Assembly (NCBI GenBank): GCA_964631415.1
Contig: CAZVZC010000038.1
Span: forward strand, 1-19,806
Direction: 5' to 3'
From: an uncultured archaeon
GTDB taxonomy: Archaea; Asgardarchaeota; Thorarchaeia; Thorarchaeales; Thorarchaeaceae
Length of the DNA: 19,806 nucleotides
The position numbers were made by a program, and so were the translations under genes. Below are positions 5,048 through 6,874 of this stretch, piece after piece (the stretch's first letter is position 1; every line of letters starts with the position of its first letter). The notes under the pieces were generated by a model. That model searched no databases. It was not told the origin of the DNA and was given only the letters and a program-made list of their open reading frames with translations.

Positions 5048-6874
5048 TCATTCAGGTGGCGGCCCACCTCCTATCTCACATGCCTGGTAGTCAGTCCCCA
5101 GCCAAAGGCCGCTTGATTCGTAGGCCATCACCTTGACCTCCAATCGACTGTAACCCGACGGGTACGTCCATGTGGCATAGTACTTGCCCCCTGTGTCTGG
5201 TGTGTAGTCCCTCCCCTTGCTGCTATAGGTAGTCCATGAACCGTACGTGGTCTTGTACCTCACGTAGAAGTCCACATAGTCCATTATGGTGTAGTGGTTC
5301 ACATAGACCATGACCTTGGACCCGACCAGTGTGACAGACGATATCAGCAGCGTTGCAGGGACAGGATCATTGATGTCAAGGGGGTCGTAGTCGTGTTCGA
5401 CTTCGTAACCGTCAGTCAGGCCGTCCCCGTCAGTGTTGTCATCCCTTGGGTCCGTGAGATACGTCACGACCTCATCATAGTCGCTCAGTCCGTCGTTGTC
5501 CGTGTCAGAGTCGTGCGGGTCTGTCTGGTGATAGTACGTTTCGGCATCATCGGTCAGTCCGTCGGAGTCAGAGTCTGGGCCTGCAGTGATCCAGTCTGCG
5601 ACGTAGTCGTACGTCGTCCCACTCGGGTCGTCAATCAGGAGGTTGTGGTTGATGTCGAAGAACGCCTGCGTCGCGAACGAGAGGTGCGCTCTTCCTACAG
5701 CGACTATCGGATCACTGAGATCAAAATGGATGAACAGCAGCAAAGCGCTCATAATGGCATCATAGCCGCTTACTGTGCACCATTCGATTCCAGACGAGTA
5801 GTTGAGCGGGGCTAAGTTGAGGGCTGTGAGGAAACAGCTCCCGGGCATCATCGACCAGAAAACAGGACTTGGCCAGAGCGCTCCACCGTTGAGCAGTCCA
5901 CCGATCAGAGAGAGTATCAAGGCCCAGTTGTTGAGAGGATTCGCGAGATATGTTCCGCAGTTGGGCGTTCCGAGAGTGAGGACTCTCCCGATGCTGACAC
6001 CGTCACTGTCAAGCTGGGCCCGATGAAGTCTGAGCATCTCGCGAGCAATGAGTCCTCCCATGCTATGCCCTATGATGTTCACCTGGCTGCCTGAGGGAAG
6101 GTTGCGCAGCTCTTCGAAGAGGTTGTCAGCTAAGTTCGAAATCGAACATCCCCAATGCACTGCGTTTTTCTCAGACTCTGTGGTCGCGCCGTAGGCCTCG
6201 AAGTAGTCGAAAAACCGCACATTGTTGCGATCATAGTCAGTCTTGAAGAGAAGGCGGTCCTCAAAATCGTCGTACATACGATTGAACTGGTCATCGAATC
6301 CCCAATAGCCATGGATAAAGTACAGGTATCGTCCCAACGGATGAAGCATGCCCTTCTGAGCACAGGCAACTCGGTCGAAGGGAAAGGCCACTTCCTTGTC
6401 TAGCGTCGTGAGCTGTTTGAGGTACCAGCCGACCACTAGTGCACCCGCCTCTGCATCGACTCGGCCCGCAAACCCGAACACCTCCGAAGACGGGTCAGAT
6501 GGTGAGTAACATGCGAGAACTATAGTCTTCCTCGGTTGACGTTCTGTGGTGGCCCTGTACAGCTCAGACCACGGCCGGAGTGACTCTAAGACTGTAAGTC
6601 CATCAGGCTCGCCGTGGCCAACAACCACCAAGACGTCCGCTCGTAGCGGAACTGACCCGAGTCTGGCCAACGTTGTTTCTTTGACGTCAAACCCGGCTTG
6701 AGCAGTTTCCGTGCGGAGTGTTCGCACTGCCAAGCCTGTATCCACATCGTCAACGTCCGCATTCACGACCCAGACGATGAAACCGGGCGTGAAGCCGTGG
6801 AAACCGACGCTCAGCAGCGGCATTGTCAGAACCAAGAGTAGTGCTACAAAGTTCCAGTATCTTCCCTCAGTCAA
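5048..6874 (-). CDS. Secreted clan-CD-like protease domain + PGAP1-like alpha/beta hydrolase + TSP3-like Ca-binding repeats + C-terminal beta domain, paralogue 2
   Basis: Signal/TM N-terminus; VVVGHG (H87) and IVLACYS (C122); FIHGYWG oxyanion motif, GHSMGG (S271), LGTPN, SDPIV (D388), NHNL (H410); DxDxDGLxD repeats. Confidence 0.88.
   Translation of the reverse strand: MTEGRYWNFVALLLVLTMPLLSVGFHGFTPGFIVWVVNADVDDVDTGLAVRTLRTETAQAGFDVKETTLARLGSVPLRADVLVVVGHGEPDGLTVLESLRPWSELYRATTERQPRKTIVLACYSPSDPSSEVFGFAGRVDAEAGALVVGWYLKQLTTLDKEVAFPFDRVACAQKGMLHPLGRYLYFIHGYWGFDDQFNRMYDDFEDRLLFKTDYDRNNVRFFDYFEAYGATTESEKNAVHWGCSISNLADNLFEELRNLPSGSQVNIIGHSMGGLIAREMLRLHRAQLDSDGVSIGRVLTLGTPNCGTYLANPLNNWALILSLIGGLLNGGALWPSPVFWSMMPGSCFLTALNLAPLNYSSGIEWCTVSGYDAIMSALLLFIHFDLSDPIVAVGRAHLSFATQAFFDINHNLLIDDPSGTTYDYVADWITAGPDSDSDGLTDDAETYYHQTDPHDSDTDNDGLSDYDEVVTYLTDPRDDNTDGDGLTDGYEVEHDYDPLDINDPVPATLLISSVTLVGSKVMVYVNHYTIMDYVDFYVRYKTTYGSWTTYSSKGRDYTPDTGGKYYATWTYPSGYSRLEVKVMAYESSGLWLGTDYQACEIGGGPPPE
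5363..5575 (-). repeat. Three intragenic TSP3-like (DxDxDGLxDxxE...DP) calcium-binding repeats
   Basis: DSDSDGLTDDAE..TDP, DTDNDGLSDYDE..TDP, NTDGDGLTDGYE..YDP. Confidence 0.85.

Follow-up and report, generated by a model that had tools for sequence, protein, structure and literature searches.

In eukaryotes and bacteria, proteases of the caspase fold (MEROPS clan CD) govern cell death, immune responses and the maturation of toxins, whereas little has been charted of their past in the archaea related to eukaryotes. Their fold is built on a sheet of strand order 2-1-3-4-5-6 with a His/Cys dyad where strands b3 and b4 reach their C-terminal ends, a small three-stranded sheet lies between b3 and helix a3, and the minimal core consists of b1-b4 with a1-a3 (PMC4357240). 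In bacterial polymorphic toxins, caspase-like releasing peptidases sit just upstream of the toxin domain and α/β-hydrolase toxin domains are known, while such toxin systems are described as rare in archaea (PMC3482391). Here we analyse a gene from a Thorarchaeaceae archaeon that resembles these arrangements and departs from them in several respects. It lies at positions 5048-6874 on the minus strand of a 19,806-nt stretch of DNA (contig CAZVZC010000038.1 of assembly GCA_964631415.1; hereafter the window, to which all positions refer) and encodes a lipase-type protein that carries a small His-Cys domain, termed the head, at its N-terminus. A clan CD peptidase joined to an effector-like hydrolase is already known in kind; what is new is the family of the head, which lies outside Pfam-A and NCBIfam and is smaller than the characterised clan CD enzymes.

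The open reading frame (ORF) of the lipase gene is open over 608 codons from a TTG start and yields a protein of 608 residues. Residues 1-27 (6794..6874; all parts of the gene are on the minus strand) constitute a leader with the TTG start, one basic residue, a hydrophobic stretch and the conserved end ...PLLSVG. Residues 9-27 are the sole strongly hydrophobic stretch of the protein (Kyte-Doolittle about 2.0-2.4), and the leader end has small residues at -3 and -1, which fits a signal-peptidase site. Judged from these features the leader is probably a Sec signal peptide that would be cleaved off, or possibly a signal anchor. It is followed by the head, a mini caspase/CHAT-like domain of residues 28-182 (6329..6793) with H87 at 6614-6616 and C122 at 6509-6511, the conserved acidic residues D43 and D140, and a conserved P179-L180 that marks the end of the domain. 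Behind the head lie a lipase-type α/β hydrolase (residues 183-440; 5555..6328) with S271 (6062-6064), D388 (5711-5713) and H410 (5645-5647), three Asp-rich, calcium-type repeats of the bacterial thrombospondin type-3 (TSP3) kind (about residues 430-500; 5375..5587; PF18884, E 1.8e-10 over three stretches), and a C-terminal FN3/Ig-like beta-sandwich (about residues 504-600; 5075..5365), for which a language-model atlas search gave no usable match. The gene closes with a Gly-rich and Pro-rich tail (GGG-PPP-E), conserved in the orthologue alignment, and the stop codon (5048..5074).

The closest proteins to the lipase gene product (57-92% identity) stem from metagenome bins of Thorarchaeota and 'Promethearchaeota'. 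For residues 28-182 zero matches were obtained in NCBIfam and in Pfam at E up to 10, PDB searches with the domain (phmmer and two profiles) likewise gave no match, and a language-model atlas search returned sub-threshold leads only (0.81-0.87; DUF6345, DUF6642, CHAT). A profile of these residues, when run against 1.84 billion cluster representatives, retrieved 117 proteins at E up to 1e-3, and all members with a named source are from Asgard archaea (Thor-, Hermod-, Odin-, Heimdall- or Promethearchaeota). The family is matched in 117 of the 301 Asgard genomes sampled and in 45 of 70 genera, with four matches in the window's own genome and at least 12 in some others, and by its distribution it appears to be restricted to this group. 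Among the papers covered, literature searches found none on the head family or on DUF7379, the family of the hydrolase described below.

Within an alignment of 106 head domains that share a median pairwise identity of 22% (minimum 10%), H87 and C122 are the only invariant columns. Other positions are well kept, namely G88 (99%, 105 of 106), G92 (99%), D140 (98%), W102 (96%) and S124 (92%), and position 86 is G, S or A, while position 121 is A, S, T or G in 99 of 106 sequences, mostly A or S. The local pattern thus reads as four hydrophobic residues followed by G/S/A-H-G, and four hydrophobic or small residues followed by C, with a His-to-Cys spacing of 32-38 residues across the family, most commonly 35. 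On the evidence of this alignment, the invariance of the dyad exceeds what chance or a close paralogue could yield.

A model of the head, computed by AlphaFold2 with the 106-sequence alignment as input, reached a predicted local distance difference test score (pLDDT) of 95.2 and a predicted template modelling score (pTM) of 0.91, and as modelled the head is a genuine module that folds by itself. Its elements follow the order b1-a1-b2-a2-b3, H87, three short strands, a3, b4, C122, isolated bridges, a4-a5, and thus include the minimal clan CD core with b1-b4 arranged as 2-1-3-4 and helices a1-a3. Strand b3 ends at residue 85 and is followed by H87-G88, strand b4 ends at 120 and is followed by A121-C122, so that the His precedes the Cys as in clan CD, and DSSP assigns three short strands (60-62, 65-68 and 71-74) between b3 (54-58) and a3 (75-83, all in model numbering), where clan CD enzymes have their three-stranded insert. 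CHAT was the best structural neighbour in all three structure searches. A Foldseek search against the PDB ranked the SAVED-CHAT filament 8tl0 first (E 1.4e-4), and its list also held Craspase and caspases 3, 6, 7 and 9, interspersed with flavodoxins; a structure search of the ESM Atlas returned CHAT clusters (template modelling score, TM, 0.66-0.69), a CHAT/TIR cluster (0.67) and a Peptidase_C13 cluster (0.64). The structural alignment with CHAT spans 148 residues, against about 115 for generic folds.

Sequence profiles point, weakly, in the same direction. We aligned the family profile by local hhalign with profiles of genuine Asgard CHAT and C14 domains, using PurE and flavodoxin as controls of the same architecture, and obtained P values of 0.0018 for C14 (92 aligned columns), 0.023 for CHAT (150 columns), 0.069 for PurE (95 columns) and 0.31 for flavodoxin (86 columns). 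In both the C14 and the CHAT alignment the family's GHG coincided with xHG, the motif of the catalytic His, and its AC with the catalytic Cys, whereas in the two control alignments the His and Cys were not paired with functional residues. In a lax Pfam scan of the 106 domains, no family other than Peptidase_C25 (5 of 106, best E 0.0044) was matched by more than two of them; there were single faint matches to Peptidase_C80 (1 of 106, E 0.075) and DUF4347. The hidden Markov model of CHAT (PF12770) matched neither the lipase protein nor any of the 106 domains at E up to 10, and the true CHAT proteins of Asgard genomes are encoded by separate genes. Because these weak signals agree with one another, and with the invariance of the dyad and the predicted topology, we consider it likely that the head is a clan-CD-type domain with a functional dyad.

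The observations that an earlier note on this DNA had made on the head are borne out, its interpretation in part. A motif scan of the translation (GHG from 86, ACYS from 121, GHSMGG from 269, DPIV within SDPIV from 388, NHN from 409) confirmed the residue numbers that it gave for H87, C122, S271, D388 and H410, and conservation of the dyad in homologues, a check that it had named beforehand, is seen in the 106-sequence alignment. It had proposed a caspase-like fold, and predicted secondary-structure order, dyad placement and closest structural neighbours all fit the core of clan CD (caspase/CHAT); its assignment of the host to the archaea agrees with the source of the closest proteins. The motifs are also kept, as it had noticed, in a paralogous His-Cys/lipase gene that is truncated by the contig end (1..1173, minus strand), where they read VVIGHG and VIACHS, although this paralogue is 88% identical over the N-domain (78% over the hydrolase) and its motifs are therefore weak evidence alone.

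Compared with CHAT peptidases (PF12770; 8tl0 SAVED-CHAT and 8d9f, the TPR-CHAT protein Csx29 of Craspase), with which the His and Cys are in register, the head shares a motif logic of a hydrophobic strand followed by xHG and a hydrophobic strand followed by AC. CHAT domains comprise about 290 residues, whereas the head has about 150 and is without the b5 strand region that comes after the Cys in CHAT; CHAT accompanies cytoplasmic sensor domains, whereas the Asgard head is predicted to be extracytoplasmic, is joined to a lipase or to membrane tails and is, as far as seen, confined to Asgard archaea. Similarities to gingipain C25, to caspases and metacaspases (C14) and to legumain (C13) stay below family thresholds, and the residues that line the S1 pocket of these enzymes are not identifiable in the head. 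The releasing peptidases of polymorphic toxins and the C80 cysteine protease domain (CPD) of MARTX and large clostridial toxins resemble the head in being small clan CD modules directly upstream of an effector-type domain of an exported protein, with α/β-hydrolase payloads known and a conserved neighbouring gene (PMC3482391), the faint C80 match mentioned above being the only one in the family. Set beside the features of polymorphic toxins (Zhang et al., 2012), the locus has a leader, a head upstream of the hydrolase and a conserved downstream gene, but its host is an archaeon, its hydrolase is not C-terminal and the partner protein lies outside the known immunity families. As a separate observation, the weak Peptidase_C25-like matches of the own genome sit in genes other than those of the head family; one of them, a 390-residue ORF (G000:C3:69476-69631; E 0.0034, and 24.4 bits with neighbouring pieces), may by this match encode another clan-CD-like surface protein.

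The hydrolase region (about residues 185-400) is matched in Pfam by DUF7379 (6.7e-11), DUF676 (8e-7), PGAP1 (1.6e-6) and many generic lipase/esterase families. At 42.9 bits, the match to DUF7379 (PF24096) clears the cut-off of 33, and with its GxSxG nucleophile, Asp and His in place the protein belongs to this family; that to PGAP1 (PF07819) clears its cut-off of 24.3 with 28.5 bits, yet is limited to residues 258-306 (profile positions 86-130 of 233). Of the triad residues, S271 and H410 do not vary among 24 lipase orthologues, and at least 90% of these retain D388; the TSP3 columns D434/D436/D438/E445 and D482/D484/D488/E491 are invariant as well. When the hydrolase profile was compared with solved structures, Legionella RavL (7x2p) was the best match (2.6e-8), followed by staphylococcal Lipase 2, PlaB and small Bacillus-type lipases (about 2e-5), family I.2 lipases (about 1e-4) and PGAP1 (2.4e-4). 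Going by these profiles, it is accurate to call the module a lipase-type α/β hydrolase of the DUF7379/DUF676 group. Its identity to bacterial lipases and surface hydrolases (RavL 7x2p, PlaB 6zth, family I lipases, DUF915 3fle/3lp5) amounts to 13-19%, and, unlike them, it is combined with a protease-like head, with TSP3 repeats and with an FN3-like domain. The match to PGAP1 extends over only about 49 residues on either side of the nucleophile, and the Asgard protein lacks the membrane part of PGAP1, having no membrane helices behind its hydrolase. A full-length AlphaFold2 model, based on 10 sequences, was poor (pLDDT 58) and was used for rough domain-level matches only.

These results also sort further statements of the earlier note. 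The Ser/Asp/His hydrolase that it took to be intact is so by Pfam matches and conservation of the triad, and the calcium-binding repeats that it placed behind it are the three TSP3_bac repeats. Its expectation that standard annotation would name the hydrolase only fits the labels of relatives, which are called 'esterase/lipase family protein' or 'DUF7379 domain-containing protein'. Its term 'PGAP1-like', however, proves too specific, because RavL, PlaB and other bacterial lipases outscore PGAP1 in the profile search. Nor is the head peculiar to the fusion with a lipase that the note had described, since it belongs to an Asgard-wide family whose commonest members have membrane tails of several helices.

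Downstream of the lipase gene, a Ycf48/BNR-type propeller gene (3774..4994, minus strand; Pfam PSII_BNR 2.1e-22) starts 54 bp past the lipase stop on the same strand. Its product has 406 residues: a signal or anchor leader comes first, the beta-propeller next, and a membrane helix with a basic tail lies at the C-terminus. For comparison we collected 20 loci from other Asgard genomes and two metagenome contigs, which gave 16 distinct lipase loci with sufficient downstream sequence. An orthologous propeller gene (38-71% identity) follows directly in 14 of these 16 (named among the paired loci: L034, L035, L037-L040, L043, L044, L046, L049 and L029). At one of these loci (L036:4721-6475, minus strand; G179:C63) the orthologous lipase gene has a single in-frame TAA and the adjoining propeller is intact. 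A complex prediction for the mature lipase chain and the propeller ectodomain ended with a score of 0.00 and 'no answer', and counts neither way. The own genome (2.2 Mb) holds four lipase copies, three of them at contig ends, and three propeller copies; paralogues lie at the ends of contigs C8 and C4 and at the starts of C38, C21 and C37, which indicates that the cassettes are repeats that break the assembly. The window itself contains a tandem segmental duplication, in which 1-805 and 5721-6530 share lipase parts that are about 81-82% identical, and 3278-3529 and 7358-7609 are 88% identical, such that a 252-nt stretch after a PepSY-like gene recurs after the second lipase at a spacing of 4080 bp.

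From the domain boundaries, the fold model, the invariant dyad, the intact triad, the distribution of the family and the pairing of the genes we infer the following course of events. The lipase gene product would be exported as a surface or secreted enzyme of the thorarchaeon, and its head of about 150 residues, a stripped-down version of the caspase-haemoglobinase fold, would be an active cysteine peptidase of the clan CD type, in which H87 serves as the general base and C122 as the nucleophile. After export, the head would cut its own chain at or near the conserved junction with the payload, around P179-L180, and this cut would free or activate the Ser-Asp-His lipase/esterase module together with its TSP3 repeats and FN3-like sandwich. 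Precedents are the caspase-like releasing peptidases ahead of effector domains in bacterial polymorphic toxins and the CPDs of MARTX toxins. The membrane-anchored propeller is probably a partner of the product, serving it as dock, folding helper or inhibitor. As a whole, that is with export, an active head, the self-cut and the propeller partner, we hold this scheme for possible, just short of an even chance; self-processing in cis, taken alone, is a tentative step that we would call plausible rather than probable.

The arrangement of the family as a whole speaks for such a scheme. Nearly all members have an N-terminal hydrophobic leader with the head directly after it, always in front of varied modules: the commonest form, of 300-400 residues, continues into 3-5 predicted membrane helices, which have no Pfam match, and often a short acidic, D/N-rich tail, rarer forms carry PKD, GH5-type cellulase or Ig-like domains, and the form with a lipase is typical of Thorarchaeota and their relatives. 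By its position in the sequences, then, the head is a fixed, outward-facing N-terminal module before a variable remainder, which fits a role tied to its own chain, for example in release or maturation. P179-L180, the sole conserved feature of the junction between head and payload, does not vary among the 24 lipase forms, and across the family as a whole 88% of members retain L180. The membrane-tailed members (P0044-P0129, for example P0071, P0089 and P0094) are often encoded in tandem gene pairs (G015:C35, G075:C2, G238:C30).

Several points weigh against the scheme of a self-cutting head. The six-stranded sheet of clan CD is incomplete, as b4 is followed by isolated short bridges (around residues 132-135), with a vestigial b5 and no b6, and no characterised enzyme of clan CD is as small as the head. 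CHAT leads the generic flavodoxin-like, LacI and PurE folds, which have the same 2-1-3-4-5 sheet, by only about 1 Z unit; this small margin results from the first five strands being common to the caspase sheet and the flavodoxin-like arrangement, and the fold alone is thus not decisive. No sequence search gave a significant link to any clan CD family: nothing was retrieved by profile from Pfam, NCBIfam or the PDB, and hhalign yielded weak P values. The payload of polymorphic toxins is C-terminal, whereas two more modules follow the hydrolase of the Asgard lipase. Finally, the membrane-tailed majority of the family weakens a purely CPD-style, toxin-releasing reading, and these many forms fit a tethered surface enzyme acting in trans equally well or better.

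In that alternative, which we think unlikely but which deserves to be taken seriously, an active clan-CD-type head would work in trans, as a membrane-proximal protease or transpeptidase by which other surface proteins are matured, trimmed or attached, and the lipase protein would be a surface enzyme of two activities whose head is simply joined to an esterase. The C25-like PorU and the C13 enzyme GPI8, which mature, trim or attach other surface proteins, would be its models. The same evidence from fold and dyad applies here as to a self-cutting head, and the leader, head and 3-5 membrane helices of most members would place the head on the membrane's outer face. The expansion of the family to 12 or more matches in some genomes, and its presence in 117 of the 301 Asgard genomes sampled, also suit an enzyme of this kind. 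On the other side, the head is always single, N-terminal and directly before the variable module, an arrangement that points to a function bound up with its own chain; the junction at P179-L180 is conserved, and neither substrate candidates nor sorting-signal partners were found.

The gene pair could also be read as an archaeal toxin-immunity cassette, in which a lipase released by the head attacks the ester-lipid membranes of bacteria and the propeller is the immunity protein; this overlaps the other readings rather than excluding them, and we regard it as unlikely. The near-constant propeller gene, the 3-4 cassettes in a 2.2-Mb genome, several of which break the assembly, and the locus with a stop codon in the lipase and an intact propeller would all agree with it, as would a layout analogous to caspase-like releasing peptidases with Tox-ABhydrolase domains and the presence of the Legionella effectors RavL and PlaB among the closest solved relatives of the hydrolase. 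However, an organism that makes ether lipids should have no need to protect itself from an esterase, archaea rarely have classical polymorphic toxin systems, and the own genome has no orphan or surplus propellers (three against four lipases, at comparable positions). The propeller might just as well be a docking site or a dedicated folding helper, comparable to the membrane-anchored foldase whose gene lies downstream of bacterial lipases of families I.1 and I.2. A broader version is likewise doubtful in our view: Asgard archaea would have a family of outward-facing mini-caspases of their own, serving as self-cutting release heads on interchangeable payloads (lipase, membrane helices, PKD, GH5), and the lipase-propeller cassettes would form an effector/immunity or effector/dock system directed against neighbours with ester lipids.

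It is quite improbable, in our estimate, that the head is no peptidase but a flavodoxin-like module whose His and Cys bind a metal or cofactor or serve another chemistry, such as acyl-thioester transfer with the lipase, or that it is a chaperone or prodomain of the hydrolase. The narrow lead of CHAT over generic folds would be explained in this way, but the order of His and Cys, their placement behind the adjacent strands b3 and b4, the flanking Gly or small residues and the three-stranded insert are specific marks of clan CD, the CHAT alignment is longer than those with generic folds, the PurE and flavodoxin controls performed worse than C14 and CHAT in hhalign, and the head also occurs without any hydrolase, hence it is not a lipase-specific prodomain. 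A proto-GPI system of a C13/GPI8-like head and a PGAP1-like deacylase was considered as well and rejected, as the hydrolase is nearer to bacterial lipases and its PGAP1 match is confined to the nucleophile elbow.

The remaining genes of the window are of varied kinds. Divergent to the paralogous lipase gene, two genes on the plus strand (2025-3311 and 1417-1911) encode a membrane-tethered winged helix-turn-helix (wHTH) protein and a 428-residue membrane protein without Pfam match. A 'four-gene system' that joined divergent wHTH, PepSY-like and microprotein genes to the lipase was discarded, as the upstream genes are unrelated at the orthologous loci of two other genomes, and they are therefore not counted as part of the lipase feature. 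Outside the window, Cas12f1-like TNB (TnpB-type) genes occur within a few kb of the orthologous lipase-propeller pairs of two other genomes (L028:607-1767 and L029:9240-10979, both on the minus strand). A 579-residue surface protein with NosD/right-handed beta-helix repeats and a C-terminal membrane helix is encoded at 8570-10309 (plus strand). A fusion protein of 1151 residues combines two HdrA-like flavin modules with an MvhD domain, and two genes with CCG domains (HdrB-like) and one 4Fe-4S (HdrC-like) gene lie nearby (14405-17860, 10365-11222, 11242-11781 and 18882-19730, all on the minus strand); judged by their domains, these genes look like a heterodisulfide-reductase-type electron-bifurcation cluster.

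To our knowledge, the Asgard head is the smallest caspase-like module, and it is predicted to lie outside the cell. Should it prove inactive, the annotation of the gene as a secreted lipase would still be correct, and its conserved domain would lack an explanation. If it is active, the family would represent a new family of clan CD and a minimal scaffold for studies of the fold, and Asgard archaea would decorate their surface with caspase-type enzymes; the lipase form would then be the first candidate for a self-processing exported esterase of archaea, with a conserved membrane partner. And if the heads release their payloads as effectors against ester-lipid neighbours, the prokaryotic lineage closest to eukaryotes would possess a weapon of its own for use between species, with a protease of the caspase fold at its base.

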